The notes under the pieces are model-generated. The model was not told where the DNA came from. It saw only the letters and a program-made list of their open reading frames with translations, and did no database searches. A stretch of DNA of 64,000 bases from a virus. Taxonomy: Duplodnaviria; Caudoviricetes. Both the position numbers and the translations under genes were made by a program. The stretch is from IMG/VR virus record IMGVR_UViG_3300031088_000758. One strand, given 5' to 3'. Positions 20,175-59,014 of the stretch are shown piece by piece (positions within the stretch are counted from its first letter, which is position 1; the number at the start of each line of letters is the position of its first letter).

Positions 20175-21368
20175 TTACGCCACTCTTCTTGCTTTTATGT
20201 CATTAAACCAAGGTTCTACTGTTTTAGTAATATACTCTTCCATATTGACACCAGAGCCAGGAACTACCTCATCATCTTTGTGTAGTCTATATTCAAAAAC
20301 TTCGTTATCATTAATTAATGCTCTTACATCTGCGTATTCAAGACCTGTTGTGTTTAAATAATACAAAGTTTGCGCTCTGTAGTTATTCGGCACACCATTT
20401 TTCCAAATATCCGAATTGCTCCCAGTTTTAATTTCTAATATTCCGTTGGGGACTCCATCTTCTCTATCTGAAATTAGACCATCAAAATTAACTTGTTGCC
20501 ACTCGCGTTCAGGGTGAGAAAATTGCCCTTCCACAGAGTACACTTTTCTTTCGGGGTGCTCTTCAGCGTAGTTCTCTCTGATTCTATCTTCCCATACAGT
20601 CCCTCTATAAAGAGCTCCTTTACGCTGTGCAAATTTAAGATCGTTTTCTTTTTTGAAATCTTCATCTGTGAATGCATTAGTCTTTGTTTTAACTATTTTA
20701 GAATACCCAGCTTTTGTGTAACCAGCTGGTTCTTCTTCGAAATGTATAGAAGCCAAAGTTCCAACATCCGATCCACCAATTGTGTTGTATCTTGCTTCAT
20801 ACCATTCTCTTGAATGAGCAGGGTGTGATTCAGAATTTACAGCAATCCCTATGTTCTTTTCGGTCCAAGAATCTACTTTTGAGTTTAAAAATCTACTATC
20901 ATTAGTTGCTTCTACTAGCTCAGCAGTTAGATTTCGATAATCGTCATAATCTCTTTTATGAGACTTAACTGTTTTAGGGTCTATGAGCTTTCTTTCTTCA
21001 ACTCTTTTAATTGCTTCATTTCTTTGTCTCGTCTTTAAAATTCTATCTTCAATTATTTTATTAACTTGCTTATAGTTAGCAGCACTTTCATTAACAAAAT
21101 CTACTATCTCACTAACACTCTTTTTCTCAAGCTCTTTAATAAATGAATTTCTCACAGAAGTCTTTTTATTTCTAGCAACTTTTGTTGTTGTCAAAGTTCC
21201 ATACTTTTCTGATAATTGATCTTGCAAAGAGTTTTCTGCTTCTTCCTTGGTTTCATAGTGTGCTACTGTATCCCCTGAGATAATAGAAAACTTACAATTC
21301 TCTGGAGTCTGTGCCGAACAGGCACCTATCTTGCCTGTATCAGGATTAATATGAAACTTAACAGCCAT
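20175..21368 (-). CDS. YqaJ/lambda-exonuclease-family protein with N-terminal HCCH module
   Basis: EWYEARYNTIGGSDV, RGTVWE, NFDG, LEIKT, YRAQTLYYL; N-terminus KFHINPDTGKIGACSAQTPENC...HY. Confidence 0.85.
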   Translation of the reverse strand: MAVKFHINPDTGKIGACSAQTPENCKFSIISGDTVAHYETKEEAENSLQDQLSEKYGTLTTTKVARNKKTSVRNSFIKELEKKSVSEIVDFVNESAANYKQVNKIIEDRILKTRQRNEAIKRVEERKLIDPKTVKSHKRDYDDYRNLTAELVEATNDSRFLNSKVDSWTEKNIGIAVNSESHPAHSREWYEARYNTIGGSDVGTLASIHFEEEPAGYTKAGYSKIVKTKTNAFTDEDFKKENDLKFAQRKGALYRGTVWEDRIRENYAEEHPERKVYSVEGQFSHPEREWQQVNFDGLISDREDGVPNGILEIKTGSNSDIWKNGVPNNYRAQTLYYLNTTGLEYADVRALINDNEVFEYRLHKDDEVVPGSGVNMEEYITKTVEPWFNDIKARRVA

Positions 21369-21468
21369 TAGATTACCAACCTTATCATGTTCTAAAATAC
21401 TTATAGTCGCTTTTCTAAAACATTTTATTGAATAAATTGATTTACTAAAAAATATTTTTGATACAATA

Positions 21469-21517
21469 AAATAGAAAATACCCCAACAAGTTTTAAATGT
21501 TGGGGTATTTTCTATTT
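21469..21517. terminator. Perfect inverted repeat, 20-bp arms
   Basis: aaatagaaaataccccaaca / tgttggggtattttctattt. Confidence 0.65.
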
Positions 21518-21524
21518 AAGAACG

Positions 21525-21737
21525 TCAAAGAATTTCAATCTCTTCCATGCTGTCATAGGCAAACCTTCGATAGTCATCCTTATCCAAGTCAATCGCAACT
21601 AAAACATTTCCAGAAATAACTTCCACTGGACGAACATGTCGCTTTGAAACTTTGTTCTTATTCAGATTTGAATATGTAAAAACCAAATCCGAATTGTTTT
21701 GAATAGCAGCTTCAACTACTTTTTGAACATTCTTCAT
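21525..21737 (-). CDS. Stand-alone WYL-domain protein
   Basis: AAIQN...FTY...RHVRP...LVAIDLDKDDYRRFAYDSM. Confidence 0.7.
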   Translation of the reverse strand: MKNVQKVVEAAIQNNSDLVFTYSNLNKNKVSKRHVRPVEVISGNVLVAIDLDKDDYRRFAYDSMEEIEIL

Positions 21738-21738
21738 A

Positions 21739-24333: not shown

Positions 24334-24375
24334 ACTACTAACCTCACTTAACTATACTGAAATGTTCTAAAATAC

Positions 24376-27640: not shown

Positions 27641-28849
27641 TCAGCTGAAGATATTAAGTATGTCTTTTATCGTACCTGAGTTATTCTTTCCGTAAAGGCT
27701 TGTTTTGGACCTTCTTTGGATAAGTTCAGCTTCTTCTTTTGCATCGCGGATTTCTTTTTTCTTGATGAAGTTTGTTACTGCTAGATCAATATCTGTTATG
27801 AGATCAGATGCGTAGCTTGCTTTTTTATGGGCAGTTTTGTCATCATTAGTTCTCATGTAGTTTTTGATATATGAATTTAAGTATCCATAAGCTTCATCTG
27901 CTGAATTTACTGGCTGGTGATGAAACTCGTTATTCACGCGAGTTTCGATATACCATTGTCCTTGATTGTATCGAACACCCCAAGAATTACGAGATTGATT
28001 CGTTTCATTATCGTATACTCTTACATCAATTTCTGGTGTCAAAGCTTGGTAGTATCCATTTTCGTTAAGGAATTGTTCAAAAATTTTGCCTCTAAAAGCA
28101 GAGTGTTGGTAATCAGCATTTACGATCAAAGAAGTAGGGTCGCTTTTAGCAAAGGTTCCATACCCATCTGTTCTAGCCCACAGTTTTTGAGGGCCTTCGG
28201 TTTCTTCTTCCACCATGAAGTAAGCATCAATTAACTGTCGTTTTAAGAATTTAGTTTGTCGCTCGATATCTTCTGAGTTTGTGTTTACAGTAGAATTAGA
28301 TATGACGGACTCACGAATGATATCTTCTGCACGAACAATTTCTCTTTCAAAATCATTGTGTAAATCTAAGTCATGTTTAACGGTTTTTCTAGCATAATTG
28401 TTGTTTGGTAGCTCTGTTTCTAGGAACCATTTGCTAGTAATTACTCCGTCATCGTAATCGGGAACGGGAATCCTTTTGATGAAGATTTTATGAGATGAGT
28501 CATTGTAATACATATTGTTCTGTTTTAACTGAGAATGTAAAGAATAAAATTCAGGTTCTTTTCCTGTTGAATAAAATTCATGATCTACTTTATCAGCAAA
28601 GTCTCTCATAGTTTCTTTTTGATTGATTCCGCTAAAATCGGTGAGAGCAACCATCCTTTTTGTGTCTGGATTAGAGAAAGCTTTCTTAACGTTTTCTCTA
28701 GCAGTTTCAAGGTCAGTTGCGGCTTTTTGCAAGAATAAAGCTGCACTGGCAGCTTCTACGGTACTGTAATCAGTTCTAGGGCAGCCTCTTAACTTGGCAC
28801 GACATTCAACAATGTCTCCATTAACGTCAATATGGTATTTCTTTGCCAT
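27641..28849 (-). CDS. Hypothetical protein with N-terminal HCC module variant
   Basis: KKYHIDVNGDIVECRAKLRGCP; GGAG RBS. Confidence 0.7.
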   Translation of the reverse strand: MAKKYHIDVNGDIVECRAKLRGCPRTDYSTVEAASAALFLQKAATDLETARENVKKAFSNPDTKRMVALTDFSGINQKETMRDFADKVDHEFYSTGKEPEFYSLHSQLKQNNMYYNDSSHKIFIKRIPVPDYDDGVITSKWFLETELPNNNYARKTVKHDLDLHNDFEREIVRAEDIIRESVISNSTVNTNSEDIERQTKFLKRQLIDAYFMVEEETEGPQKLWARTDGYGTFAKSDPTSLIVNADYQHSAFRGKIFEQFLNENGYYQALTPEIDVRVYDNETNQSRNSWGVRYNQGQWYIETRVNNEFHHQPVNSADEAYGYLNSYIKNYMRTNDDKTAHKKASYASDLITDIDLAVTNFIKKKEIRDAKEEAELIQRRSKTSLYGKNNSGTIKDILNIFS

Positions 28850-31333: not shown

Positions 31334-31879
31334 TCAACAAGCGCTTGCTCCACCGCAAGGTCCACCATCATAATATGAATGTCTATAATTAGGTCTAGGT
31401 GTTGTTTTTATTTCTTGCTTCTCGATTTCTTGAGCAATTTCTTTTTGTTCTTTGAGGGAATCTTTTCGTTTTTTGTCAAGAATTAAAATGTCTTCATTCT
31501 GTTGTTTGATTTCTTCATAGATTTTATCTCTATCTTCTTTTGATTTGTCTAAGCTTAAAGATTTGTTAAGGTCTGTTAACTTGAATTTTCGATTTTGTAA
31601 GTTAGATGTAAGATGTTCAACTCGCCTATTAACAATAGCTAACTTTTTGCGGTTTGTTTCTAACGTTTCTTCATTACTAGATGTTTTAGAAGAGGATCGT
31701 TTAACAGTGGAAGTAGTTTTTGTGTCATTCATTTTTTCATAAGCTGCTTTTGCCTCATCTTTTGAATCATAATGTGCAACAACTGTTCCAGCGTCAGTTG
31801 AAAATTTACAGCTTTCGGCTGACGCTGCTGAGCATTTTCCGGCTCTTCCTGTCTCGGGATTAATATGAAATTTATTCAT
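31334..31879 (-). CDS. HCCH-module protein with coiled coil
   Basis: KFHINPETGRAGKCSAASAESC...HY, then coiled coil; C-terminus PCGGASAC. Confidence 0.7.
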   Translation of the reverse strand: MNKFHINPETGRAGKCSAASAESCKFSTDAGTVVAHYDSKDEAKAAYEKMNDTKTTSTVKRSSSKTSSNEETLETNRKKLAIVNRRVEHLTSNLQNRKFKLTDLNKSLSLDKSKEDRDKIYEEIKQQNEDILILDKKRKDSLKEQKEIAQEIEKQEIKTTPRPNYRHSYYDGGPCGGASAC

Positions 31880-36051: not shown

Positions 36052-37539
36052 TTAGTTATCTTTTGAAAACAGCTTTGCCCAGAAACTTTTCTTTTTTACA
36101 GGCTCAATTGAAGTTTCTTCTTGAATATGTAAAAAACTAGTCCAGTTGTCTGATAGCATAGGTTTTCCTATCTCGAATTTTTCGCCATTTATTCTAAACG
36201 TTATTCTTTCGCCGTAATCTCTATTTCCTATATGTTCTTCTACTTTGATTAACCCTGAAGGTGTCTTGAATTCTGGTTCGTCAACAGCTATGTACCCATC
36301 ATTAACATTTTTCTTTTTCAAGTTTTCGATATGATTGACAAAATTAAGTAATCCATTTTTAGCCATTTCACCTGGCTTGTCAGTTGTTTTGAATATATCT
36401 ACTACTGCTCTTAATCCTTCCTGGCTGTTTTGAGGTTTTTTGCGAAGGATTTCTTTTTGTATTTCAACAGGAAGATCTTGCAATCCTTTATCCCATCTTT
36501 GTTGCAACTCAATGCTGTCTTCATATTTAGCCATAGGCTTTGTGTTTTTAAACTGGTCTAATTTAGTGACATCATTAACATCATGAGACTGAGTACTGAT
36601 CTTGTTTGAATTGATGTTAGTGTGTGGCTTTGGTTTTGTTTTGTTTAAAGGAACACTACTGTAATTAATTTGTGTTTTGTTTTTACTTGGGGAGGACTTA
36701 ACTTTTAGCTTAGTGTTAATAATATTGTGGTATTTATCAATTTTTTCTGCGTTCATCAGGCTGTCAACAGTTAGTCGAATATAACCTTTGTATTCACTAG
36801 GTCTCTTACTCTCTAAAAATTTTCGTATATCTCGGGCATTGTTATTAGTCAATTTTCCAGAGCCATTGTATTTTTTGGAATAAGTATTGATGAATTTTTC
36901 GATGCTTTTGACTTCACTATCCATTGTAGTGTTTTTATAAGTACTATGCTGTTTCATATGCGCAGTACTATATCCTGCTTGCCTTAATTTTCGAATATAA
37001 TCTTTTTTGTAATATGTTTCATTGTACTTTAAAGTTACTGCATATAAATCATTGTCAGTAGTTAGTAAATTTGACAATGCTGCTTTTCTTACATCAGTAT
37101 ATTTGTTAAGGTAGGCTAATTCAACTAATCTTCTGTTCTTTGTGTTTTGTATGAGATGACCGTTGAAATGAGCACTAAGAGAAGCTATTTTCATTAAAGT
37201 TTTTTCAGAAGTATTATGGTTTTCTGCAATAGCTTTTAAGAATTTTTCTTTTTCTTTTGCTGTACTATGTTCTGACATGACTTCATCAAACTTTTTGTCT
37301 AAGCTCTGTTCTGTCTTGTATTCTTTAATTTTCTTTAAAAGTTTTTTACTATCTTCCTGAAAAGCGCTTTTAGTGATTGTGCCTGTGGCAGAGTGTTCTT
37401 CTGTCAAACGCTCTTCAACAGACTTTTTAGCAGCATCCTTATCTTTAAAGTGCTGGTTACTCCCATAAGGGCATTTACCGTTGTTAGCATAGCACTGTCT
37501 CACCTGACCAGTTGGTGTGGTATGGTAAATTTTCTGCAT
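36052..37539 (-). CDS. HCCH-module protein, basic, unknown function
   Basis: KIYHTTPTGQVRQCYANNGKCPY...HF; C-terminal KKKSFWAKLF amphipathic tail. Confidence 0.7.
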   Translation of the reverse strand: MQKIYHTTPTGQVRQCYANNGKCPYGSNQHFKDKDAAKKSVEERLTEEHSATGTITKSAFQEDSKKLLKKIKEYKTEQSLDKKFDEVMSEHSTAKEKEKFLKAIAENHNTSEKTLMKIASLSAHFNGHLIQNTKNRRLVELAYLNKYTDVRKAALSNLLTTDNDLYAVTLKYNETYYKKDYIRKLRQAGYSTAHMKQHSTYKNTTMDSEVKSIEKFINTYSKKYNGSGKLTNNNARDIRKFLESKRPSEYKGYIRLTVDSLMNAEKIDKYHNIINTKLKVKSSPSKNKTQINYSSVPLNKTKPKPHTNINSNKISTQSHDVNDVTKLDQFKNTKPMAKYEDSIELQQRWDKGLQDLPVEIQKEILRKKPQNSQEGLRAVVDIFKTTDKPGEMAKNGLLNFVNHIENLKKKNVNDGYIAVDEPEFKTPSGLIKVEEHIGNRDYGERITFRINGEKFEIGKPMLSDNWTSFLHIQEETSIEPVKKKSFWAKLFSKDN

Positions 37540-37576: not shown

Positions 37577-39070
37577 TCAGTCTTCAATAGCCTTTTTGTC
37601 ATTATCAGTTGTTAATTCTCCTGATAATCGTTGATTTCGTTCACGAGCATACTCATTTGCTCGATTAACTTGCGCTCCTAAAGCATTGATTGTCGTTAAG
37701 AAATTTTGATTTGCTTCATCTCTGAAATTGTCCATATCATCCATGGTTTTGAACATAGTGTCAAAGCTTTCTTGTAGAACTTTTGTGTCAACGCTTTCTG
37801 TTGTAGCTTGTCTTTGAATTTGTAATGCATTTTGTTGAAGGTTTTTAGCATTATCCGTAATAAGATTGTTTGTTGTATTGCGCATAAAGTCAACACCTTC
37901 AAGAATTTTCTTTTGGTGTCCTAAAGATTCAGCAATACGTGCTGAAGTAGCAAGTGCTGTAGCAGTTGTTGTTTTTGTTCTTTCAACATTCTGTGCTAAC
38001 TTATTGTTGTTTTCTTCGATCATACCCATAGCCATGTAACTTTGAACAGTCACAGCAGTTTGAGTCATAACATCTTGATGTCTTTGTCTAATGTTGAACA
38101 ATACGTTTTGTTCAAGAGTTTTCGCTAGTTCACTGTTGCCATTAGATTTTTCTTCATTAATCTTTTCGACTACTTTGTTATCCATAGAACGCAATAATTT
38201 ATCAGCTCTTTGTAATTCTCCTAGATCATTCCATAATTGCTGACGTTCTACTGCCAGTTCCGCATTTTCTTGGCTTAATGTTGCTTGTCCTTTTTCAAGA
38301 CTTTTCATTATGACATCCATTTGCTTTGCGTTACTTTCAAAACGATTAAAGTATTTCTTAACAGCATTTCTGCCAGGTAAAAACGCTAATGCTTTTGCCT
38401 TGAATGTATCTTCTTCAGGAGCCATATCTTCAATAACGTTTCTCAAGCTAGCAAGATCTTTTCCAACTTTTTCAGAAGCGGAGTTTTTTCTTGATGAACT
38501 ATTATTTAAGAAGTTTGTTGAAAGAGATGCAGTAGAGCTGAAAGCCTTGTTAGCGATTTTTGAAATCGCTTGTGTATGTTTAATAAACTTTTGGGAATTA
38601 GGGTTGATTGAAGACATTGTTTTTATCCATTCTGAAGCTTTGTTGTCTAAAGCAACAGCTTTTGAATTTGGCATATCATCAATAAGTGTCAAAGCTTTAT
38701 CTTCATCAATTGTTTCCACAGGAGCTGCTGCTTGATATTCAGAAGGTTTTGTAGGAGCTGATAGTTTTGGGCTAGAATTTTGTTCGTCTTCTTTTTTTTC
38801 ATCATCAATAAATAACTGCGAATCGGCTTCTACAGTGTAGCTATTTTGATTTTGGGTGCCAGTTTTCGCGGAAAAATCATCAATGGGTTCAGGCTTCTTT
38901 AATGTAGAAACAGTTTTATTTTCATTGAATTTTTCATAAGCATCAAGAGCATCATCAATACTATCAAAGTGTTCAGGCAACATATTATTAACAGCATAGG
39001 CACATCCTTTAACTGTAGCTGTACACTCTCCAGGTCGTCCTGTTTCTGGGTTAATGTGGTATTTTGCCAT
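37577..39070 (-). CDS. TelA-like (toxic anion resistance) protein with N-terminal HCCH module
   Basis: VGKDLASLR, KKYFNRFES, LFNIRQRHQD, NNNKLAQNV..TTATAL resemble TelA; N-terminus KYHINPETGRPGECTATVKGC...HF. Confidence 0.8.
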   Translation of the reverse strand: MAKYHINPETGRPGECTATVKGCAYAVNNMLPEHFDSIDDALDAYEKFNENKTVSTLKKPEPIDDFSAKTGTQNQNSYTVEADSQLFIDDEKKEDEQNSSPKLSAPTKPSEYQAAAPVETIDEDKALTLIDDMPNSKAVALDNKASEWIKTMSSINPNSQKFIKHTQAISKIANKAFSSTASLSTNFLNNSSSRKNSASEKVGKDLASLRNVIEDMAPEEDTFKAKALAFLPGRNAVKKYFNRFESNAKQMDVIMKSLEKGQATLSQENAELAVERQQLWNDLGELQRADKLLRSMDNKVVEKINEEKSNGNSELAKTLEQNVLFNIRQRHQDVMTQTAVTVQSYMAMGMIEENNNKLAQNVERTKTTTATALATSARIAESLGHQKKILEGVDFMRNTTNNLITDNAKNLQQNALQIQRQATTESVDTKVLQESFDTMFKTMDDMDNFRDEANQNFLTTINALGAQVNRANEYARERNQRLSGELTTDNDKKAIED

Positions 39071-45580: not shown

Positions 45581-45600
45581 TTCAAAAGTTAAAGTTTGGT
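45380..45600 (+). ncRNA. Probable TnpB omegaRNA scaffold plus flank-derived guide
   Basis: Inferred from general TnpB architecture (scaffold over the gene 3' end and right end, guide from the flank); the 3' end of tnpB is locally GC-richer. Boundaries approximate. Confidence 0.45.
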
Positions 45601-46764: not shown

Positions 46765-48003
46765 TTGATGAATGAAAAAAATAAAAATCCACGAAAAGGT
46801 GTTCCCCGAAACAAAAGAGAATTTATAAAAACTCTTCCAATAGCTAAAGAATGGAACGATGAAAAATCAATTGATGATTACACAGCGGCAAGTGAGTATG
46901 AAGCACAATGGAAGTGCTTAGAATATGGACATATTTATACACTTGCTGTTAATCTTCGTGTTAGGCGCAAAAAACCCGCTTGTCCTTACTGCAATAATAG
47001 AAAAGTTTTAGAAGGTTTTAATGATTTGGCAACGATTCATCCTTATTTGCTTTCAGAGTGGAATGATGAAAAAGAACCAACAGAAGTTTTAGCAAATACA
47101 AACGATAAAATACAATGGAAATGTTTAGCTCATGGTCATAAGTGGAAAATTTCTCCATATAGCCGTATTAAATTTAATTCGAACTGTCCTTATTGCGGAA
47201 ACCAGAAATTGCTACAAGGATTCAATGATTTTGCTACGGTATATCCAGAAATTGCAAAAGAATGGCATCCAACAAGAAATGATACTAAACCTGATACTTT
47301 TATAATGAATTACGGTATTCAATATTGGTGGATATGTACAAAAAACCATGAATACAAAGCTACATGCAGACATAGAGCTGAAAGGAACCAAGGATGTCCG
47401 ATTTGTTCTGGCAGGCAAATTCTTGCAGGTTTTAATGACTTAGCTTCACAGCGTTCTGAGCTTATGAAAGATTGGGATTATTCACAAAATGCCCTTGATC
47501 CAACTAAAATCTCTGTTCATAGAAATGAAAAAGCACAATGGAAATGCTATATTTGCTCTCACAAGTGGGAAGCTTTAATAAGTAATAGATCAAGAGGTTT
47601 TGGATGCCCTAAATGTTCAGGGGCAATTTCAAAACAAGAAAAAACTTTGTTGAAGTTTATTAGAACAATGTTACCAGGAAAAGTTCTTGTTGTAGAAAAT
47701 GATAAGAAAATCATAAATCCAAAAGAAATAGATATTTTTATTCCTTCATTGAACATTGGATTTGAGTACAACGGATTGTACTGGCATGATAAAGAAAGCT
47801 ACCTAAACGATTTAAAAAATAACACTCAATTCAGCAATGAACGAGTGAAAGAAATCCTATGTGCAGAAAAAAATGTTAAACTCTTTCATGTATGGAGTGA
47901 TGAATGGTTGTTGAATGAGGATGAAACTCGCAAAAAAATAAAAATAATTATCAAAAATTCTTTAAACAATCTACCGGATTCCACCGTCAAAACTGTTTCT
48001 TGA
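46765..48003 (+). CDS. Zinc-ribbon-repeat (DUF4379-like) protein with Vsr-type endonuclease domain
   Basis: Four W.C..GH...CPxC repeats linked by GFNDLAT; EIDIFIP..IGFEYNGLYWH...HVWSDEW. Confidence 0.8.
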   Translation: MMNEKNKNPRKGVPRNKREFIKTLPIAKEWNDEKSIDDYTAASEYEAQWKCLEYGHIYTLAVNLRVRRKKPACPYCNNRKVLEGFNDLATIHPYLLSEWNDEKEPTEVLANTNDKIQWKCLAHGHKWKISPYSRIKFNSNCPYCGNQKLLQGFNDFATVYPEIAKEWHPTRNDTKPDTFIMNYGIQYWWICTKNHEYKATCRHRAERNQGCPICSGRQILAGFNDLASQRSELMKDWDYSQNALDPTKISVHRNEKAQWKCYICSHKWEALISNRSRGFGCPKCSGAISKQEKTLLKFIRTMLPGKVLVVENDKKIINPKEIDIFIPSLNIGFEYNGLYWHDKESYLNDLKNNTQFSNERVKEILCAEKNVKLFHVWSDEWLLNEDETRKKIKIIIKNSLNNLPDSTVKTVS

Positions 48004-48118
48004 AAACTTTGAATTTGTTGGGTACAAACTGATATAGAAAACGTTAAGCTTAAAATGACTAAAATTTGGTAGAATTATACTGATACAAAACAGTAAGATG
48101 ATAAGTAAAGGAAGTAAG

Positions 48119-50251
48119 ATGGCAGAAAAATTAGATACTAGCTACACAGCAGATGATTTGCAAAAACTTGAGTACCCGATGTCAATCTGGCGCAGGCCAT
48201 CCATGTACTTGGGTGAAAGAGGCACACAACAGAGTGTTGCCACTCGTGAAATCATTGATAACAGTGTTCACGAAAGCGTTCGTGGGTTTGCGGATAGGAT
48301 TAAAGTAGTATTCGGCAAAGATGGATCAGTTACGGTTCAAGATAATGGTAGAGGTTTGCCAACAGACATTAATAAAAAAACTGGAGTCAATGGAATTATT
48401 TTGACTATGGCTACTTTACATGCTGGAGCAAACTTTGGAAACAACGTAGCCGCTGGAAAAGCTGGTGCAGGGTTGAACGGCGTTGGAGCATCCGCTACTA
48501 ACGCTCTTTCAAAAAGATTTGATGCTATCATTTACAAAGCTGGAAAAAGATATCAACTAAGCTTCCAAGATGGTTTTGCTGGGCATTTTGATGGTGAAAC
48601 TCCTGAAGATTCGTTTAGCAAATCAGATGAAATTCTTGTTTCAAAGGATGAAAGAAAACCTGCTGAGAAAAAAGATTTCAAAACAGGAACTATTATCAAA
48701 CTATGGTTCAATGAAGAAAGATTCCCTGCGGATGAAACAATCGACATTGATGATCTAGTGGACCGTTTAAAGTATACAGCATATATTGCTCCTGGTCTTC
48801 ACATTGACATAATTGATGAAAATCGACAATATGAAGATGGAACAAACTATACATGGGAATTCTTCAGTGAGCATGGTCTTGAAGAAATGGTTGAAGCTAT
48901 TTCAGAAGACGCTTTCTTGCCAGGAACAGAAGCTAAAACTAATGTTTTCACTGAAAAAGGTATTTATACTTTGAAAACAGAGGGGAATTACAATGAGTTG
49001 ACTTCTGATGATGAAGGTAAAGTGAATGAGATCAAGCGTACAGTTACAGCAGAAATTGCTTTCCGTTATGGAACTGGATACGAAAAGAAACTAAACTCTT
49101 TTGTTAATACTATTCACACTCATTTAGGTGGAGTTCATGAGCAAGCTTTTGAGAAAGCACTTGTAGAAGCTTTTGGTGCGAGAATGTCGTCAATGCGTGG
49201 TATTCTTACAGCAAAGGATGAACCACCTATTATTGATGATTTCTTTGAGGGTATGACTGTAGCGTTGTCTGTGAATGTGCCGGAACCACAGTTCGTAGGT
49301 CAGCAGAAGGACAAGTTATCAGGTCCAGAAGTTCGCAAGGCTCTGACTAAGGCTCTTACAGAGTTGTTTACTAAGTTTGCTAATGATCCTAATAATCAAA
49401 AGATATTGAAGCCTATGTTTGAGAAAGTTGCACAAGCTTCTAAGAATAGGCATGATGCAGCTATAGCAAAATTGGCTAAGCGTAAAAATACACAAGTGTC
49501 TTCTTCTTCAATGCCTGCTAAGCTTTCGGATTGCGATTTGACAGGAACTGAAGAATCTGAATTATTGATTTGTGAGGGTGATTCGGCTAAGGGCACTATT
49601 CTAAAAGCGCGTGATGCTACTTATCAGGCAGTTATTCCTATTCGTGGTAAGATTTTGAACAGTTACAAAGCGGATATGAAGCAAATCTTGAATAATAGTG
49701 AGATCACAGATATAGCAAAAGCTATTGGTGCTGGTTTTGGCAAAGAGTTTGACATTGAGAGAATTCGCTATGGTAAGGTTCTTTTTGCGGCTGACGCTGA
49801 TGTTGACGGTTCTCATATTAATATTCTTCTTTACACTGTGTTCAATAGAATGTTTAAGTCTATGATTGAAGAGGGAAGAGTTTATCAAACTGTTCCACCA
49901 TTGTTTGAAATTACTTATGGAACAGGAAAGAGTCAAAAAATTGACTATGCTGCTAATGAGGCTGAGTTGAGTCAAATTGTTAAAAAACTTGAAAAAAGCG
50001 GGAAAAAGTACAAAGTAGAACGTAATAAAGGTCTTGGAGAGATGACCCCAGAGGCTTTTTCCGAGACTGTGCTTGACCCTGCCACTCGTTCATTGCGTAG
50101 AATTACGTTGAAAGATGTTCAAGCTGCGGAAGAAGCTTTGGTTTTGACAATGGGTGATAACTCTCAGGAGCGTAAAGATTTCATTGGTGATAATTTCCAG
50201 ACAGCTATTGATACAGGGCTTGTTGAAGGCTTTGAATCTGGTAACGAGTGA
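48119..50251 (+). CDS. gyrB: Type IIA topoisomerase subunit B (GyrB/ParE)
   Basis: RPSMYLG, EIIDNS, DNGRGLP, GLNGVG, EGDSA, PIRGKILN, DADVDG, KGLGEM; probable start ATG 48119. Confidence 0.93.
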   Translation: MAEKLDTSYTADDLQKLEYPMSIWRRPSMYLGERGTQQSVATREIIDNSVHESVRGFADRIKVVFGKDGSVTVQDNGRGLPTDINKKTGVNGIILTMATLHAGANFGNNVAAGKAGAGLNGVGASATNALSKRFDAIIYKAGKRYQLSFQDGFAGHFDGETPEDSFSKSDEILVSKDERKPAEKKDFKTGTIIKLWFNEERFPADETIDIDDLVDRLKYTAYIAPGLHIDIIDENRQYEDGTNYTWEFFSEHGLEEMVEAISEDAFLPGTEAKTNVFTEKGIYTLKTEGNYNELTSDDEGKVNEIKRTVTAEIAFRYGTGYEKKLNSFVNTIHTHLGGVHEQAFEKALVEAFGARMSSMRGILTAKDEPPIIDDFFEGMTVALSVNVPEPQFVGQQKDKLSGPEVRKALTKALTELFTKFANDPNNQKILKPMFEKVAQASKNRHDAAIAKLAKRKNTQVSSSSMPAKLSDCDLTGTEESELLICEGDSAKGTILKARDATYQAVIPIRGKILNSYKADMKQILNNSEITDIAKAIGAGFGKEFDIERIRYGKVLFAADADVDGSHINILLYTVFNRMFKSMIEEGRVYQTVPPLFEITYGTGKSQKIDYAANEAELSQIVKKLEKSGKKYKVERNKGLGEMTPEAFSETVLDPATRSLRRITLKDVQAAEEALVLTMGDNSQERKDFIGDNFQTAIDTGLVEGFESGNE

Positions 50252-50332: not shown

Positions 50333-50339
50333 GCTTGCT

Positions 50340-50402: not shown

Positions 50403-51929
50403 ATGATTAGAATATATGCCCGTAATACTGAAGTTAAACGAATAGAAAACAATGAAGCACAAGAATTTGTTGAAACGCATCATTCACAAGGCGCTGCCAA
50501 AGGTAGTTTTAAAAAAGAATCATTAGGTTTATTTTCTTCTCATGAGTTAGTGGGAGTTGCTCAATTTTGCTCACCCCGAACTTCTGGTAAAAAATTAGAA
50601 TATACTACTGAACTATTAAGATTATGTTTTAAAAATGATGTACAGGTTATAGGTGGGGCTAGTAAACTTATTAAGTATTATATTGAAAAATATAATCCTG
50701 CGGATCTTTTCACGTATCAAGATACAACAGGAGACAATAGTGATGTGTATGAAAAATCAGGGATGAAGTTTGTTAAGCAATATAAAGATAAAAAATATCT
50801 CGTAGCTCCGGGGAAGACTTTTGCTACTGCTGATAGGAAAAGTAGAGAGATCCTTACATTCTCTTATGCTGTGAATATGGGGCCAGATAATATTCTTAAG
50901 ACAAAATTAGGTGAACAATTTTATAACAACGGAAGCCGAAAAAGCAATATAGATTTATTTTTGGAATTAGGGTGGAATATTGAAACCACCACGGGAGATA
51001 AAGTGTATGAATGGGTTAATCCAAATTTAAGTTTTTATACTTATAAAATAACCTCTACTGACTCAAAGAAATATTATTATGGCATGTCAAGTGTCAAAAA
51101 ACCTTTTAGAGATATCGCTATTAAAGATTGTTTAAATGATGGGTATTACGGCAGCGGTGGAAATACGTTGAAAAATAATAAATTTAAAAATTGGAAGAAG
51201 AAATATAAAAATACGCTAAAAAAAGAAATTATTCAAATTTTTGAAAGAAAGAGTCAAGCTTATGAACATGAGAAAAAAATAATTGGCGATTTATGGAAGA
51301 CAGATCCATTATGTTTAAATAGTTCTGCAGGTGGAGTTTATACTGGTTTTGGAAAGGGTTGGCGCGAAAATGTGTCTTTGAAAGAGTGTTCTATTCATGG
51401 TATGACTAAGCATCGTGGTAATGCTTGTTATAAGTGTTTTATGAACGAGCTAGTGTCTGTGAAAGTGTGCGAGATCCATGGTGAAACTAAATTTCAAGGT
51501 GAATCGTGTAGTAAATGCGCTGTGAGTAAAACTTTTGTTCAAAAAGAGTGTGAGATTCATGGTTTAACGACTTTTTCAGGAAATTATTGTAGAAAGTGTA
51601 GTGTTGCTAAAACTGTGGTTATGAAAGAGTGTAGTATTCATGGCATGACTAAACATCAAGGTAATGTGTGTAATTCTTGTAATGCTTTAAGTAGCATTTC
51701 TATTAAAACTTGTGAGGTTCATGGGGAGACTAAATTTGTGGGTGATAAATGTAGAAAGTGCATTTCTGCGAAGAACAATGCTTTGAAAGAGTGTGCTGTA
51801 CATGGTTTAGTTAATTATAGAGGTAATTCTTGCATGAAGTGTAGTGCTCAGAAGAGAAAGCATGTCAGGGGTCTACATGATGATAGCCCGGATCATCTGT
51901 GTTATATTTGTTTAGAAGGTAATACATGA
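50403..51929 (+). CDS. Free-standing homing-type endonuclease: Hef/GNAT-like domain, Seg-like GIY-YIG, six CxxHG-CxxC fingers
   Basis: IYARNTEVK...GGASKL; FYTYKIT...YYYGMS...YYGSG...AYEHE...LCLN; six 27-aa repeats. Confidence 0.75.
   Translation: MIRIYARNTEVKRIENNEAQEFVETHHSQGAAKGSFKKESLGLFSSHELVGVAQFCSPRTSGKKLEYTTELLRLCFKNDVQVIGGASKLIKYYIEKYNPADLFTYQDTTGDNSDVYEKSGMKFVKQYKDKKYLVAPGKTFATADRKSREILTFSYAVNMGPDNILKTKLGEQFYNNGSRKSNIDLFLELGWNIETTTGDKVYEWVNPNLSFYTYKITSTDSKKYYYGMSSVKKPFRDIAIKDCLNDGYYGSGGNTLKNNKFKNWKKKYKNTLKKEIIQIFERKSQAYEHEKKIIGDLWKTDPLCLNSSAGGVYTGFGKGWRENVSLKECSIHGMTKHRGNACYKCFMNELVSVKVCEIHGETKFQGESCSKCAVSKTFVQKECEIHGLTTFSGNYCRKCSVAKTVVMKECSIHGMTKHQGNVCNSCNALSSISIKTCEVHGETKFVGDKCRKCISAKNNALKECAVHGLVNYRGNSCMKCSAQKRKHVRGLHDDSPDHLCYICLEGNT
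51375..51860 (+). repeat. Six tandem 81-bp (27-aa) zinc-finger repeats
   Basis: K.C..HG.T...G..C..C pattern six times; units 1/4, 2/5 and 3/6 pair up. Confidence 0.9.
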
Positions 51930-52023: not shown

Positions 52024-54477
52024 ATGGCTAAACGAGTTAAAATTGATGAAGAAGACTTGAAGGATAAGAAGCTAAAGTTTGAGAAGGTTGCTGATAACCT
52101 TGAGGAAATACCTGTTGATAGGTTTTTGAAAGATAATTTCTTGCCCTATGCTTGGTCGGTTTCATTGGATAGGGCTTTGGTAGACGTAACTGGTTTGAAG
52201 CCGGTTCAGAGGCGTATTTTGTATACTATGTATGGTATGGGGCTTTCACCTAATTCTGGTCGTTCTAAGGTTGCTACTCTTGCGGGTCGTGTTTTGGCTT
52301 ATCATCCGCATGGTGATGCTTCTGTGTCAGATGCGTTGAAGAATATTGCACGTCCTCACGTTTTCCGTGTCCCTTTGATTGATGGTAAGGGTGATTTTGG
52401 ATCTCCAGGAACCCCAGGAGCTGCTGCACGTTATATTGAAGCACGTTTGAATAAAGCTGCTTGGTTGAATGTGGAAGATATTGCTGAACATGCTACAAGA
52501 ATGGTTCCTAACTATGATGACACTAGTGTTGAGCCTGTAAAGATTCCTGTAAAATGGCCTGTTTCTATTGTTAATGGTGGTTCAGGATTAGCAGTTGGTT
52601 ATGCGGCTAATATGCCTTCCCATAATCCTACTGAGATTATGAAAGCATGTAAGGCATTATTGAAAAATCCAGATATGACTCATGATCAGTTGGCTAAGAT
52701 CGTTCTTGGTCCAGATTTTAATATGGGTGGAACGATTACATCTAACGATGGTATTAAGCAGTATTTGAAGACTGGCACTGGTTCTTTTAAAGTTCGTGGT
52801 AATTATGAGGTTACTCCTGGTGCTAGAAGTACTTTCCGTATTGAATTCTATGAGCTTCCTTATGGTACATATCCTGAAAAGATTATTGAAGAAATACAGA
52901 AGAACACTGAAAAAGGTAAGTTTACTGAGATTGCTAGCTTCAAAGATCTTTCTGATTTGAAGCACCCTATTCGTGTAATTATTGATACTAAGCCTAGTGC
53001 TAATCATAAAAAAGTTCTTCAAGATTTATTTAAGTTTACTAGCTTAGAGTCAAACTTCTCAGCTAACATGACAACAATTGTTGATAATCGTCCTACTCAG
53101 TCTTCAATGTTAGACTTGTTGGCTGATTTCATTAATTTCCGTAAAGAATGTGTTGCTAATAAGACAAACTATATTCTTCCTCGTCGTGAGAATCGTTTAC
53201 ATTTAGTTAATGGTATGTTGAAGACTCTCATTGACATTGATAAAGCAATTTCTATTATTCGAGGTTCTGCTGATACAGAAGTAGCTAATGAAAAACTTCA
53301 AAAGGCATTCAAGCTTGATAAAGAACAGGCTGAATATGTACTGTCTCTTCAGTTGAGAAGATTAACTAAAATGGATAGTTTAGCTTTGGAGCAAGAGAAA
53401 TCAGATTTAGAAGACGAAATCAAATATTTGAATAGTTTGTTAAATGATGAAGATGTTCTAAACAATTATTTGATGAACGAGTTTGACAATACTTTAAAGG
53501 TTATTGGTGATGAGCGTAAGACAGAGATCAATGGTATGTCTGCTGATGAGTTTGCAGCTCAAGAAAAAGCTGTGGCTCAAGAATTGAAAAACGCTGATAA
53601 AGATCTTCCATGCTATATTACACGTTTTAATAATGGAAAGATTATGAAGACTATGGAGCCTTTCTCATATCCTGAAAACACTAAGAAATTCTCTGATGGT
53701 TTAGTTGTTGAGCAGATTAAAATGCGAACCCAGGAATCATTAGTATTAGTGGACAACTTTGGAACAGGGTATAAAGTTCCGGTTTCCTATTTCATTGAGA
53801 ATAAAGCAACTGATGCTAAGTCTGCTGGTTTGACATTACCTAAGAGTGCTTCAATTGTTGGTGTTGCTAAATATGAATCTATGAAATCTGATGTTGGTTT
53901 GGCACTTGGTACTAAGATGGGTGCTGTGAAAATCGCTAAAACAGACTTCCCCAAGAATGATCAGTTCCCTGTGATTAATCTTGATGAAGGTGATGAAATT
54001 ATTGGTTCACGTTGGTTAGGTCGTGCCTTGACTAATTCTTACTTTGTATTTGTTTCCAAAGCTGGACAGGTCCTCATTTTTGAGGCTAAGAGTATTAGGG
54101 AAACTGGTTCTAAAGCTGGTGGTGTTAAGGGAATGAAACTTAAAAATGATAAAGATGAGGTTATTCATTTTGGATGGCTTGCTTCTGTTAAAGATCCTGA
54201 GTGTGTGCTTTTGACTTATTCTGGGCACACTATTAAGCGCACTTCTATTCTTGACATTCCAACTAAGGGTAAAGCAGGTATGGGTGTGGCAACACAGTTG
54301 TTCAAGAAAGGTGAGGATAGTCTTATCACCGCTTATGCTGGCTATGATGCTTCTGTAGCAGCTACAGCTAAGACTAATCAAGTTGTTTCTTTGCCTCCTA
54401 TTATCAAAAGATCAGCACGTGGTGTAGACTTTGGTATTGACGTAGCATTTGGGTCATCTCACGTTTCTCCAATGTGA
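52024..54477 (+). CDS. gyrA: Type IIA topoisomerase subunit A (GyrA/ParC)
   Basis: GLKPVQRRILY, YHPHGDASV, catalytic AAARYIEARL, PSHN, GPDF; beta-pinwheel CTD with no clear QxRGGKG box. Confidence 0.92.
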   Translation: MAKRVKIDEEDLKDKKLKFEKVADNLEEIPVDRFLKDNFLPYAWSVSLDRALVDVTGLKPVQRRILYTMYGMGLSPNSGRSKVATLAGRVLAYHPHGDASVSDALKNIARPHVFRVPLIDGKGDFGSPGTPGAAARYIEARLNKAAWLNVEDIAEHATRMVPNYDDTSVEPVKIPVKWPVSIVNGGSGLAVGYAANMPSHNPTEIMKACKALLKNPDMTHDQLAKIVLGPDFNMGGTITSNDGIKQYLKTGTGSFKVRGNYEVTPGARSTFRIEFYELPYGTYPEKIIEEIQKNTEKGKFTEIASFKDLSDLKHPIRVIIDTKPSANHKKVLQDLFKFTSLESNFSANMTTIVDNRPTQSSMLDLLADFINFRKECVANKTNYILPRRENRLHLVNGMLKTLIDIDKAISIIRGSADTEVANEKLQKAFKLDKEQAEYVLSLQLRRLTKMDSLALEQEKSDLEDEIKYLNSLLNDEDVLNNYLMNEFDNTLKVIGDERKTEINGMSADEFAAQEKAVAQELKNADKDLPCYITRFNNGKIMKTMEPFSYPENTKKFSDGLVVEQIKMRTQESLVLVDNFGTGYKVPVSYFIENKATDAKSAGLTLPKSASIVGVAKYESMKSDVGLALGTKMGAVKIAKTDFPKNDQFPVINLDEGDEIIGSRWLGRALTNSYFVFVSKAGQVLIFEAKSIRETGSKAGGVKGMKLKNDKDEVIHFGWLASVKDPECVLLTYSGHTIKRTSILDIPTKGKAGMGVATQLFKKGEDSLITAYAGYDASVAATAKTNQVVSLPPIIKRSARGVDFGIDVAFGSSHVSPM

Positions 54478-55545: not shown

Positions 55546-55560
55546 TTAGAGTGTACATTA

Positions 55561-56967
55561 ATGAGAAAAGAAAACTATCCGGGAGTTGAGTTTTTAGAAG
55601 AATTTTGGAATAAACAGAAAAACGGTATTTCTCTTATTGATGCCAAAATTGAAAATAAGTACAAATATTGGTGGTTTTGTCAAGATTTTGATCATTCTTT
55701 TAAAAAAGACATTCGTTTAATGCAGAAAGATCAAAAATGTCAAATTTGTAATGGAAAACAGCTATTGTCAGGTTTTAATGACTTCGAAACACTTAATAAA
55801 AAATATTTATATGAGTGGGACTATGAAAAAAACGCTGTTGGCCCCAGTGAAACTTATTATAGAACGACTAAGTCAATATTTTGGAAATGTACTTTAAAGC
55901 ATTCTTATATGGCTACCGCTTTTGACAAGATGAGAAATCGTGGGGGCTGTCCATATTGCAAAAATATGCGTGTGTTAAAAGGTTTTAATGATTTAGCTTC
56001 AAGGAATCCCGAATTATTAGTTGAATGGAATTATCAGTTAAACGAAAAATTGCCTGAGGAAATCACTTTCTGTAGCGGCGTTAAAGTCCATTGGATATGC
56101 CGAAAAGACAATAGACATAAGTGGGAAGAATCTCCGTTTTTTAGAACTAATAAAGATCGAAACTGGGGCTGTCCCTATTGTGCTGGAAAACGTGTTCTAG
56201 CTGGTGTTAATGATTTATCAACAACCCACCCTCATTGGTTAGATGAATGGGATTTTCAAAAGAACAGTAAGATTGGTTTGAAGCCTACTGAATATACGTA
56301 TGGAAGCTCAAAGGAAGCATATTGGTTATGCAAAGATTATGGACATTCTTGGAAAGTAGAAATTCAAGCACGAGTGAAATATGGTTGTCCTGTGTGTGCT
56401 AATCTTAAAGTTTTGCCAGGGTATAATGATTTTGCCTCACAGGCTCCAGTGTATCTTTTAGAAGAATGGAATTATAATAAAAATGATGTTAAACCCCATG
56501 AAATTTGTTTTAAGACAGACAGATCAGTATGGTGGATCTGCTCGAAAGGTCATTCTTATAGCATGTCTGTTTATAGTAGATCTGTAATGAATTATGGTTG
56601 TCGAAAATGTTCAAATAATGGTGTTTCTAAGATGGAGAAAAGTTTATTGAATTTTATCCAAACATTGTTGCCAATTCACAGCATTGAAGAGAATACAAGA
56701 AATGTTATTAAGCCCTATGAATTAGATATTTATATTCCTGATTTGAATCTTGCTTTTGAATTTAATGGCACTTATTGGCACAGTGATTCTATAATTTTCG
56801 CTCGTACTGGTATGTCAGCTGCTGAGTTCCATCGCATGAAAACAGACATGTGCGCAAAACTTGGCATTAAGTTGATACATATTTCTGAAAAACAGTGGAC
56901 TGAAAATAATAGCCAAGTTTTGCAGATGATTCAATTGGAAACAAAAAATTTATCCACATTGAGATGA
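55561..56967 (+). CDS. Zinc-ribbon-repeat protein with Vsr-type endonuclease domain
   Basis: Five W.C...H...CxxC repeats; ELDIYIP..AFEFNGTYWH...HISEKQW. Confidence 0.8.
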   Translation: MRKENYPGVEFLEEFWNKQKNGISLIDAKIENKYKYWWFCQDFDHSFKKDIRLMQKDQKCQICNGKQLLSGFNDFETLNKKYLYEWDYEKNAVGPSETYYRTTKSIFWKCTLKHSYMATAFDKMRNRGGCPYCKNMRVLKGFNDLASRNPELLVEWNYQLNEKLPEEITFCSGVKVHWICRKDNRHKWEESPFFRTNKDRNWGCPYCAGKRVLAGVNDLSTTHPHWLDEWDFQKNSKIGLKPTEYTYGSSKEAYWLCKDYGHSWKVEIQARVKYGCPVCANLKVLPGYNDFASQAPVYLLEEWNYNKNDVKPHEICFKTDRSVWWICSKGHSYSMSVYSRSVMNYGCRKCSNNGVSKMEKSLLNFIQTLLPIHSIEENTRNVIKPYELDIYIPDLNLAFEFNGTYWHSDSIIFARTGMSAAEFHRMKTDMCAKLGIKLIHISEKQWTENNSQVLQMIQLETKNLSTLR

Positions 56968-57062
56968 TTCATTCTGAAAATTTGTGTAAGAGTGCGTTTA
57001 ATCCTTGTTTTTGTTCATTTTTTATTCGGTCCACGGTAGTTTTAAGCATGATGAGAAAATAT

Positions 57063-57091
57063 TTGACTTTATTTGTGATGTATGTTATTCT
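57063..57091 (+). promoter_or_regulatory. Sigma70/SigA-type promoter
   Basis: TTGACT-N17-TATTCT with TG extension. Confidence 0.5.
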
Positions 57092-57174
57092 TTTTCAGGA
57101 ATTCAGTGGAAACAGTAAGCGTTGTAGAATATGTTAGAAAAGCTTACAGTTAATTACAACAATAGGAGTGTTAA

Positions 57175-57432
57175 ATGAGTAATTCTGTGGATGTTCGCCA
57201 GGTTAGTATGGTTGAAAGAGATGGATATGTGATCCCGCGAGGTTCTAGGGCTTCTACTCGTAAGTTGCTTGCGGTTGATCGTTGTGATTCAAAGCAGTGT
57301 AATGCTGCAGCTCGTGTTAGGGCTGTAAAGAATAGCAGTGAATTGCTTTTCTGTGGGCATCATGCTAGGCGAAATGTGAATTCTCTTGTTGATTCAGGGT
57401 GGCTTATTGATGATCAAAGTGTTGATGCGTGA
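57175..57432 (+). CDS. Small Cys/His protein, actinobacterial DUF7455-like
   Basis: DRCD...CNAAARVRA...ELLFCGHH; AGGAG RBS. Confidence 0.7.
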   Translation: MSNSVDVRQVSMVERDGYVIPRGSRASTRKLLAVDRCDSKQCNAAARVRAVKNSSELLFCGHHARRNVNSLVDSGWLIDDQSVDA

Positions 57433-57446
57433 TATTTTTTAAATCC

Positions 57447-57488
57447 AGAAAAGTAGCGAGAGGCAATTTCACTTCTCGCTACTTTTCT
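57447..57488. terminator. Perfect inverted repeat, 15-bp arms
   Basis: agaaaagtagcgaga / tctcgctacttttct. Confidence 0.6.
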
Positions 57489-57532
57489 TTATAGATAGTA
57501 CAAGTAAGAAATCTTATTATTAGGTGGTCAAA

Positions 57533-59014
57533 ATGGCAAAATACCATATCAGCGACAAAACTGGCAAACCAGAGATATGTAGTGCGAAAGTTCGTGGATG
57601 TTTGTATGGTTTATCAGAAGAAAATCATTTTAAAAGTGTAGAAGAAGCACAATCCGCATATGAAGATAAAATGAAGTCTCAAACTTTTCAAAAAATATCT
57701 AAAAACGTTAATTTTAAAAAGAGCGATTTGGAGCCTGTTTTATCAAACTCTTTGGATTTAGATTTGTTGAACAGAATGATCAGTGATAGGTATATTCTTC
57801 GTAGTCTTCATTCTGATGATGATACTTTACAGATTTTGTGCTACGGTAGAACTACACAGTATGAAGCAAAGTGGAATGATGCTACTAAACTTGCGCGTGG
57901 TTTAATTGTCAGAACTAGTCGTGAAGATTTTGGGGATGCTGTTATTGTTCAGAGACCTTGGAAAAAGTTTTATACTCTTTCGCAAGTTGAGTCAGGCTGG
58001 GCATTAGGTGATGAAGAAGAAGGAGCTAGCTCAGCTGCTAGTAATGAGTTAGATTTGTTAGATTTTAGCGCTCCTGCAGAAGTTACTGATAAAGTTGACG
58101 GGTCCATGGGTGTGTTATATGTGGCACCTGATGGAAAACCAGCTCTTTCTACAAAAGGAAGTTTCCATTCTGAACAAGCTGAGTATTATACAAACTTATT
58201 GAGAAGAAATGATGATTTTTCTGAAGCTTCAGCGAAATTGTTGAATACTCATCCAGATACAACTTTTACGTTTGAATTGATAAGTGGTGGCGAGTATCAG
58301 ATAGTTCTTAATTATGAAAAAGATGATATATCTATGATTGGTGCTATCAAAAAGTCTAATGGTTTGTATTACTCTGTGTCTGACTACTCTGATATATGGA
58401 GTAAGGATAAAGGTTTGACATCAGCGGAATCAATGCCAGCTAAAAATCTTGAAGAGGCTTTTGCTTTGCCAGATAGGGAGAATCGTGAAGGTGTAGTTGT
58501 AAGGTTAATTAATGATGACCCTGAAAAGCAGATGCAGATTAAGATAAAGCAAGAAGACTATTTGAAGCTACATAAGACAAGAACAGCATTTTCTAAGAAG
58601 GACATGCGTGCTCTGATGCGTGAGACAAAAGCAACTTATGGAGATTTATTGAAAATTTCTGAAACGAAAGATATTTCTATTATTCCTGAAATTGCTGATG
58701 AAATTGCTGAAAATCCAAATGCTGGAGCGCAAGCAGAAATCTTCCGTCAGCGTAGAAAAGATACGTATGAGAATGTTCTTTTGAAGAGATCAGCTAAGGT
58801 TTCTGAATCTAGCAAATTTATTGAAGAATTATCTGATGAATGGTTCGAGAAAGATATTAAAGATGCTAAGCGTGATTTTGCGAAGTCTATTGCTAAGGAT
58901 AAATCTAAGGACAAGGCTCTTCTTTTCAAAATGTTTGAGGCTCGTTTCCATGGACAAAATATATCAGAAATGGATGCTAGTGATTTGATGAGGTCAGCTT
59001 CGCAAGAAATTTGA
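57533..59014 (+). CDS. T4 Rnl1-like RNA ligase with N-terminal HCCH module
   Basis: ARGLIV, RPWKKFY, motif I KVDGS, TFEL, EGVVV, KIKQEDYL; N-terminus KYHISDKTGKPEICSAKVRGC...HF; probable start ATG 57533. Confidence 0.85.
   Translation: MAKYHISDKTGKPEICSAKVRGCLYGLSEENHFKSVEEAQSAYEDKMKSQTFQKISKNVNFKKSDLEPVLSNSLDLDLLNRMISDRYILRSLHSDDDTLQILCYGRTTQYEAKWNDATKLARGLIVRTSREDFGDAVIVQRPWKKFYTLSQVESGWALGDEEEGASSAASNELDLLDFSAPAEVTDKVDGSMGVLYVAPDGKPALSTKGSFHSEQAEYYTNLLRRNDDFSEASAKLLNTHPDTTFTFELISGGEYQIVLNYEKDDISMIGAIKKSNGLYYSVSDYSDIWSKDKGLTSAESMPAKNLEEAFALPDRENREGVVVRLINDDPEKQMQIKIKQEDYLKLHKTRTAFSKKDMRALMRETKATYGDLLKISETKDISIIPEIADEIAENPNAGAQAEIFRQRRKDTYENVLLKRSAKVSESSKFIEELSDEWFEKDIKDAKRDFAKSIAKDKSKDKALLFKMFEARFHGQNISEMDASDLMRSASQEI

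Follow-up and report, generated by a model that had tools for sequence, protein, structure and literature searches.

An N-terminal His-Cys-Cys-His module shared by unrelated proteins of giant plasmid-like elements, a candidate docking handle

Six otherwise unrelated proteins encoded on a 64,000-nucleotide stretch of DNA from IMG/VR record IMGVR_UViG_3300031088_000758 (hereafter the window, by which we mean the whole stretch; it is part of a 727,572-bp contig) open with the same module of ~47 residues, which carries a His-Cys-Cys-His (HCCH) pattern. Judged from its sequence, this module is an autonomous domain that has no named family in Pfam, NCBIfam, or PHROGs. We propose that it may be a common docking handle recognized by one shared partner, and we put the probability of this reading at roughly 45%. 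Below, we describe the module in the window and in its wider family, weigh this reading against its alternatives, and then turn to the elements that carry it.

The module in six window proteins

A hidden Markov model (HMM) built from the six N-termini retrieved exactly those six proteins from a six-frame translation of the window, with E values of 1e-17 to 1e-26, while the next-best frame scored an E value of 0.75. A broader HMM of 139 sequences found no seventh copy anywhere in the window. An earlier note, made by a model from the letters of this DNA, had reported that six dispersed genes share such an N-terminal module, and the alignment of the translated open reading frames bears this out. 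The six copies are listed here with the genes to which they belong.

21219..21368, minus strand: HCCH module of a YqaJ/RecE-like exonuclease (gene 20175-21368, 397 aa)
28730..28849, minus strand: short H-C-C-D variant of the module (gene 27641-28849, 402 aa)
31730..31879, minus strand: module on a protein termed coiled-coil in the earlier note (gene 31334-31879, 181 aa)
37411..37539, minus strand: divergent module, E value of 6e-12 with the 139-sequence HMM (gene 36052-37539, 495 aa)
38930..39070, minus strand: module on a TelA-like protein, PF05816 TelA at 9e-57 (gene 37577-39070, 497 aa)
57533..57667, plus strand: module on a T4 Rnl1-type RNA ligase (gene 57533-59014, 493 aa)

The earlier note had placed the six N-termini correctly; one of its gene calls was in error, as the coiled-coil protein is the 181-aa product of 31334-31879 and not that of the adjacent frame 31879-32541. 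A purine-rich stretch resembling a ribosome-binding site lies directly 5' of all six starts. The RNA ligase gene most likely begins at ATG 57533, which gives the better fit to the family, rather than at GTG 57524.

The YqaJ, TelA, and T4-type RNA ligase cargos that had been named earlier agree with the Pfam and PHROG matches. The cargo of the 20175-21368 protein matched PF09588 (YqaJ, 3e-16) and phrog_434 (RecE-like, 1e-26), and that of the 57533-59014 protein matched PF09511 (4e-12) and phrog_562 (7e-44). The cargo of the 27641-28849 protein had no match in Pfam, NCBIfam, PHROG, or PDB sequences; likewise, the 36052-37539 protein matched no family in Pfam, NCBIfam, or PHROGs and no PDB entry. 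The gene of the latter adjoins the TelA-like gene both in the window and in a related contig (L014). The 31334-31879 protein is represented in metagenomes by ~15 orthologous clusters of 180-204 aa. Each tagged protein of the window carries one recognized cargo family or none.

Module residues are numbered throughout on the TelA-like protein (37577-39070). His5, Gly11, Cys16, Ala18, Cys23, and Ala41 are common to the six aligned window copies. His5, Cys16, and Cys23 are invariant, and so is His34, save for an Asp in the 27641-28849 protein, a change that the earlier note had already pointed out and that also occurs in its orthologues P0042 and P0046. Asp can serve as a metal ligand.

Conservation, fold, and probable metal site

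When a 32-sequence profile was run against 1.84 billion representative proteins, it matched 4,282 clusters (counted at 50% identity) at E ≤ 1e-3 and 676 at E ≤ 1e-10. Position was examined in 185 module proteins: the module lay at the extreme N-terminus in 179 (97%) and at the extreme C-terminus in six, and one protein carried it in tandem. The claim that it is always N-terminal therefore holds for all six window proteins and nearly all others, but not for the six C-terminal cases or the tandem one. Internal copies, which the earlier note had regarded as evidence against a tag, were sought among the same 185 proteins and none was found. Member proteins are 60-586 aa long.

The His, Cys, Cys, and His residues were kept in 139 of 139 diverse representatives, and the sole ligand replacement seen was the change of His34 to Asp in the one orthologue group of the 27641-28849 protein. 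The conserved core spans positions 3-47; beyond about position 49, the information of the alignment columns drops to ~1 bit or less. Conservation is not limited to the ligands, as Asn7, Pro8, Thr10, Gly11, Ala18, Tyr35, Ala41, and Glu46 are conserved at 90-99%, and the Asn-Pro-x-Thr-Gly turn together with Glu46 at 91-97%. Between orthologues, identity is 57-76% in the module and 55-88% in the cargo but just 11-55% in the linker, whose composition includes 13.8% Lys and 18% Ser plus Thr. These alignments clearly point to an architecture of a small folded unit, a floppy tether, and an independent cargo. The description of the module as grafted onto unrelated cargos is upheld, with very diverse cargos being joined to it via the fast-evolving linker.

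Three short motifs in or next to the module were also considered. A putative cleavage site behind the helix, of the form T-x-S-L-K-K, was dropped, as it fits only about a quarter of the members and its columns carry ~1 bit or less. The sortase-like Asn-Pro-x-Thr-Gly was taken as a coincidence, since it occupies residues 7-11 of proteins that have neither a signal peptide nor a C-terminal anchor. The string HYDSKE resembles the Y-x-x-x-E signal associated with type VII secretion systems (T7SS), which we note as a candidate resemblance.

The absence of a recognized named domain, stated in the earlier note, was confirmed by searches of Pfam, NCBIfam, PHROGs, and PDB sequences. The N-terminal 60 residues of the six window proteins matched nothing in Pfam or NCBIfam at E ≤ 1, ten diverse modules matched no PHROG at E ≤ 0.01, and a profile search of the PDB returned FinO alone, at an E value of 2.4. 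At full length, no Pfam family matched more than five of the 139 diverse members. A full-text literature search for the motif HINPETG found no paper, and we found none describing the HCCH domain or the lineage of its elements.

In an AlphaFold2 (AF2) model based on the 139-sequence alignment, residues 3-6 and 13-16 pair as a beta-hairpin, from which a loop leads to a helix at residues 38-52; the mean predicted local distance difference test score (pLDDT) is 76. Comparisons of this short, moderate-confidence model with known structures gave a best E value of 0.45 in Foldseek against the PDB, for a Kunitz-like topology, and a best Z of 3.3 with VIA-align wide. We took both the Kunitz match (Z of ~3) and the FinO match as due to chance. 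Uncharacterized proteins labelled viral supply the closest models in both BFVD and the ESM Atlas; about ten of them come from one metagenomic entry, "Siphoviridae sp. ctHip2", and one is annotated as a Zeta toxin. These models most likely belong to the same module family.

From the model and the alignment, His5, Cys16, Cys23, and His34 are probably zinc ligands. As the tagged proteins have no signal peptide, a Zn site seems considerably likelier than a disulfide. The order of the ligands, with His on strand 1, Cys on strand 2, Cys in the loop, and His just before the helix, led us to reject a classical C2H2 beta-beta-alpha finger, in which a Cys-Cys hairpin and a His-His helix would be expected.

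A docking handle and its alternatives

The 139 representatives matched 14 Pfam families in all, each in one to five proteins, so most cargos have no Pfam match. ADP-ribosyltransferases of PF03496 were found in five representatives, and the ADP-ribosyltransferase family PF01129 also in two; the other recognized cargos were RNA ligases, RNase T, TelA, 2H phosphoesterase, YqaJ, Zeta-toxin kinase, and an HD domain. Judged by their families, many of the recognized cargos would serve in takeover, repair, or anti-defence. The tag is modular, since the same cargo families also occur untagged, as do an RNase T in the window (19142-19747) and RNA ligases in two related contigs (L016 and L026). Most genes next to a tagged one are either tagged themselves or uncharacterized. 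Like polymorphic toxin systems with an N-terminal trafficking domain, module proteins combine a constant N-terminal domain with variable C-terminal domains.

Several of these cargos (YqaJ, RNA ligases, RNase T, and 2H phosphoesterase) act on nucleic acids, and the predicted hairpin and helix are arranged broadly as in many small zinc fingers. Together with a mildly basic, Lys-rich linker (mean charge of +1.55 per 35 residues), this would suit a nucleic-acid-binding zinc finger that ties enzymes to DNA or RNA, such as element DNA or host RNA, with neither a protein partner nor transport involved. We consider such a role unlikely, however. Linkers are net positive in only 61% of members, the conserved helix of the module is acidic, and the core is uncharged on average (mean net charge of -0.07, standard deviation 2.0) and reaches -4 in two of the six window copies. 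In addition, TelA, ADP-ribosyltransferases, a Zeta kinase, and a two-helix membrane anchor are also found behind the module. An uncharged core fits protein docking better than nucleic-acid binding.

Paralogous modules within an element are ~21-50% identical and track the orthology of their cargos, so they have not been homogenized by a co-evolving partner. This favours a module that has no common partner and acts as a structural or regulatory cap. Such a cap could switch with Zn or redox state, nucleate folding, lend stability, or mediate oligomerization, and it would have spread among the element genes via recombination as a convenient, well-expressed 5' cassette. A site of two Cys and two His could respond to redox state or to metal, and the adjacent runs of module genes fit cassette-like duplication. 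Yet the strong conservation of non-ligand residues over thousands of cargos, including the Asn-Pro-x-Thr-Gly turn and Glu46, points to a shared recognized surface, and a strictly terminal position with a flexible linker better suits a tethered docking unit. On balance, we regard the cap as rather improbable.

A docking or address handle fits the terminal placement, the flexible tether, the conserved non-ligand surface, and the expansion of tagged genes in each element. In the mechanism that we envisage, plasmid-like elements of 0.3-0.8 Mb that encode a type IV secretion system (T4SS) fuse the module to the N-termini of dozens of unrelated proteins each, with a disordered Lys/Ser/Thr-rich linker between it and the cargo; a shared partner would recognize the module by its conserved face and in this way gather or route all tagged proteins.

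In the leading specific form of this docking handle, which is possible though doubtful, the module would recruit its proteins to the coupling protein and T4SS that the element itself encodes. Tagged enzymes would then pass into the recipient cell along with the DNA, and the module would mark an arsenal of ADP-ribosyltransferases, kinases, nucleases, and RNA-repair enzymes, in what could be called a split polyvalent protein system. The earlier note had likewise suggested an address label for the T4SS; the terminal position, the varied cargos, and the presence of a T4SS on the same elements all support it, whereas the N-terminal placement is unlike known signals. The T4SS is the most attractive partner because the elements look conjugative rather than viral and the cargos resemble the repertoire of polyvalent proteins, and also because a signal made of a folded domain and a basic tail is known in Bartonella and conjugative T4SSs transfer proteins. 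Delivery of plasmid proteins to recipients by conjugative T4SSs has been described (PMC8406263, PMC11288057). The candidate receptor for the module in the window is the following protein.

12467..14986, minus strand: T4SS coupling protein of the VirD4/TraG type (PF12696, PF10412), with three N-terminal transmembrane segments and a nucleoside triphosphatase core

Its tail, residues ~650-839 (~190 residues), is extremely acidic and ends in an Asp run, and the last residues, Leu-Pro-Asp, are nearly invariant in 60 homologues. It is a matter of speculation that this acidic tail could meet the basic linkers of tagged proteins. A co-fold of the module with residues 135-839 of the coupling protein scored 0.00, a result that weighs neither for nor against binding.

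The earlier note had placed a T4SS and a coupling protein on the same element as the module, and this association extends beyond the window. The module and the coupling-protein family occur together in five of the five large contigs checked: the 727,572-bp contig of the window, two others of 681,645 and 300,084 bp, and two IMG/VR records that CheckV rates as 100% complete, namely G005 (309 kb) and G006 (345 kb, with inverted terminal repeats). There are 11 module genes in G005 and 13 in G006, compared with six in the window. Both records encode an orthologue of the coupling protein, at 47-49% identity, and a VirB4-like ATPase of the AAA_10 family.

The same two records bear on whether the module instead serves packaging, placing proteins inside a virion or other particle to be injected with the DNA, in the manner of the targeting sequence of the T4 IP and Alt proteins. 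The N-terminal position of the module would agree with this, as would its ADP-ribosyltransferase cargos, which recall T4 Alt; moreover, relatives carry a viral label in IMG/VR, the ESM Atlas, and BFVD, as with the Siphoviridae entry above. We nonetheless find this very improbable. In G005 and G006, where the coupling protein and the VirB4-like ATPase are present, none of the four virion families searched for (PF05065, HK97 capsid; PF03237, Terminase_6N; PF03354, TerL_ATPase; and PF04860, Phage_portal) was matched, a check of four Pfam families that divergent capsid genes could escape. The module matched nothing in PHROGs or in 50,697 phage records, and there is no conserved cleavage motif after position 49. 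Both records, filed as viruses in IMG/VR, are probably misfiled giant plasmids on the evidence of their gene content, and G006 may be linear.

Several points weigh against the docking handle, and particularly against its T4SS form. The T4SS signals described so far are C-terminal or internal, unlike a tag that is N-terminal in 97% of its members, and a stable metal-bound fold would be odd for a substrate that needs unfolding. The co-occurrence in five contigs may reflect the shared ancestry of one element lineage and not a functional link. TelA, YqaJ, and the RNA ligase could equally work in the resident cell. Three syntenic coupling-protein neighbourhoods from higher-GC relatives (828, 573, and 491 kb) had no module within 10 kb on either side. 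Finally, four high-GC Actinomycetota metagenome-assembled genomes (MAGs; L001-L004) encode a conserved, single-copy module protein of 178-185 aa in a membrane-anchored form.

L001:5986-6522, also in L002, L003, and L004: module, helical linker, two transmembrane helices, and basic tail

The coupling protein was not found in these four MAGs with the query used, and the module therefore appears to have at least one use outside this T4SS. The co-occurrence with this T4SS that the earlier note had asked to tabulate thus held for the coupling protein in all five large contigs checked but, with the query used, was not seen in the four MAGs. The membrane-anchored protein may be the cellular source from which the tag arose, or else its counterpart in cells.

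As a concept, variable effectors with a constant domain at one end are already known. The LXG proteins of the T7SS and the MIX and FIX proteins of the type VI secretion system (T6SS) have a constant N-terminal domain, variable C-termini, and many paralogues per genome; they differ from the module in having other folds, no His/Cys metal site, and an association with T6SS or T7SS and adjacent immunity genes. The capsid-targeting sequence of phage T4, found on IPI-III and Alt, is a 10-19 residue N-terminal peptide that is cut by the prohead protease. It shares with the module the idea of an N-terminal address on unrelated proteins delivered with DNA, whereas the module is a folded domain without a conserved cleavage site, on elements whose relatives G005 and G006 matched none of the four virion families.

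The folded BID domain of Bartonella, with its basic tail, is a T4SS signal on diverse effectors (PMC6509941). Like the module, it is a folded domain shared by unrelated enzymes and encoded together with a VirD4-type coupling protein. A charged flexible segment is joined to BID; the linker of the module averages +1.55 per 35 residues and is net positive in 61% of members. BID, however, is a helical, metal-free, C-terminal domain of ~100 residues with an experimentally established function (PMC6509941), while the module has ~47 residues, a probable Zn site, and an N-terminal position in 97% of its members.

The polyvalent proteins of phages and conjugative elements carry 2-15 effector domains per polypeptide and have been proposed to act at entry into a new cell (PMC5512222). 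Their domains overlap with the cargos described here (ADP-ribosyltransferase, Zeta-type kinase, nucleases, and RNA-repair enzymes) and they come from the same type of element; in module proteins, by contrast, a single cargo stands behind a common tag, as if the arsenal had been split. In the text of PMC5512222, zinc terms appear only for a zincin-like peptidase, and there is no small Zn domain like the module.

What is new with respect to the libraries and literature searched is the domain itself, its ligand pattern, its N-terminal place on a T4SS element, and the layout of one tag and one cargo in many genes. More tentatively, the folded, N-terminal, metal-binding domain would represent a new T4SS substrate signal of giant conjugative elements of the Gram-positive or actinobacterial type.

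The giant elements and their other genes

Apart from the coupling protein, the window encodes three further proteins that relate to the T4SS.

3..3602, minus strand: large VirB6/TrbL-like T4SS channel protein, extending past the window edge (PF04610 TrbL, 1.7e-7)
6648..7517, minus strand: NikA-like relaxosome accessory protein (PF21983, 6e-6)
10576..12402, minus strand: 608-aa protein directly downstream of the coupling-protein gene, TcpC-like via synteny only

The 608-aa protein had no Pfam match; the gene at its position in a related contig (L022) gave a weak match to PF12642 (TcpC). The position of the NikA-like gene is kept in L022, L023, and L024. The coupling-protein family itself is found on many contigs of 0.3-0.83 Mb with a conserved neighbourhood; in the window, its gene is flanked by those of two conserved, uncharacterized proteins (15020-16636 and 10576-12402). 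Some of its homologues (P0196, P0207, and P0208) reach 1,280-1,390 aa and have LAGLIDADG or Hint-type Pfam matches, which suggests from their sequences that these long forms carry intein insertions.

The window also encodes a TadE-like pseudopilin, DnaG, a Prim-Pol, and a gyrB/gyrA pair.

48098-50251: gyrB-like gene
52024-54477: gyrA-like gene

The sign of the GC skew flips near 39-41 kb of the window, where the gene orientation also changes from minus to plus, and replication of the giant element would seem to start or end in the segment 39000-41000. A gene for a 508-aa protein with a Mom-like domain (50403-51929) separates the gyrB-like gene from the gyrA-like one; a Mom-like gene adjoins tagged genes in contig L006, too. 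Three genes in 45504-48003 and 55561-56967 encode proteins with 2-5 DUF4379 treble-clef zinc finger repeats each, one of these proteins also having weak restriction-endonuclease-like matches, and DUF4379 genes were also seen in the related contigs L022 and L027. A TnpB/IS605 OrfB-type gene (Cas12f-like TNB) is found inside the element at 44207-45511. An Rfam scan of the window found nothing.

Dense runs of tagged genes occur in elements of quite different base composition. Nine tagged genes lie within 21 kb both in L006 (42% GC) and in L026 (64% GC, 79 kb), eight of those in L026 being adjacent.

L026, 8555-15652: eight adjacent tagged genes
L026, 20285-20908: ninth tagged gene, ~5 kb further

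Several of the tagged open frames of L026 abut or overlap one another, and Fic-domain and RNA ligase genes are found nearby.

Searches of sequence collections retrieved few close relatives. Neither PLSDB nor INPHARED gave a match, be it to 24 kb of window sequence in a megablast search or to two module variants in tblastn. A search for related loci with a narrow alignment gave four loci in species genomes and four in IMG/VR, and the module is rare in cellular genomes, being present in one of 301 sampled genomes from the phylum of one carrier. One phyllosphere metagenome run contains the window DNA and is maybe its source, other runs containing only small shares of it; no RNA run is listed as containing it. 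By description, the element resembles the Inocles, giant plasmid-like elements (~350 kb, 32% GC) of oral Streptococcus that encode VirB4 and VirD4 (PMC12340149), in being a giant AT-rich plasmid-like replicon from an uncultured source with T4SS genes and a GC-skew switch. It differs from them in size (727 kb) and in that a phyllosphere metagenome run contains its DNA, and the tag is absent from the text of PMC12340149.

Whatever its partner, the module defines a large domain family, the 4,282 clusters given above, that Pfam, NCBIfam, and PHROGs leave unnamed. It also provides a simple sequence marker for poorly known plasmid-like elements of 0.3-0.8 Mb that are filed as phages in virus catalogues. 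Should its target be a host machine or nucleic acid, it would still be a new small metal-binding fold and a possible fusion module. If it is indeed an address label, it would supply a list of the proteins that each element deploys, mostly ones with no assigned function. It would also offer a handle on substrate recognition by non-proteobacterial T4SSs, a process that is poorly understood.

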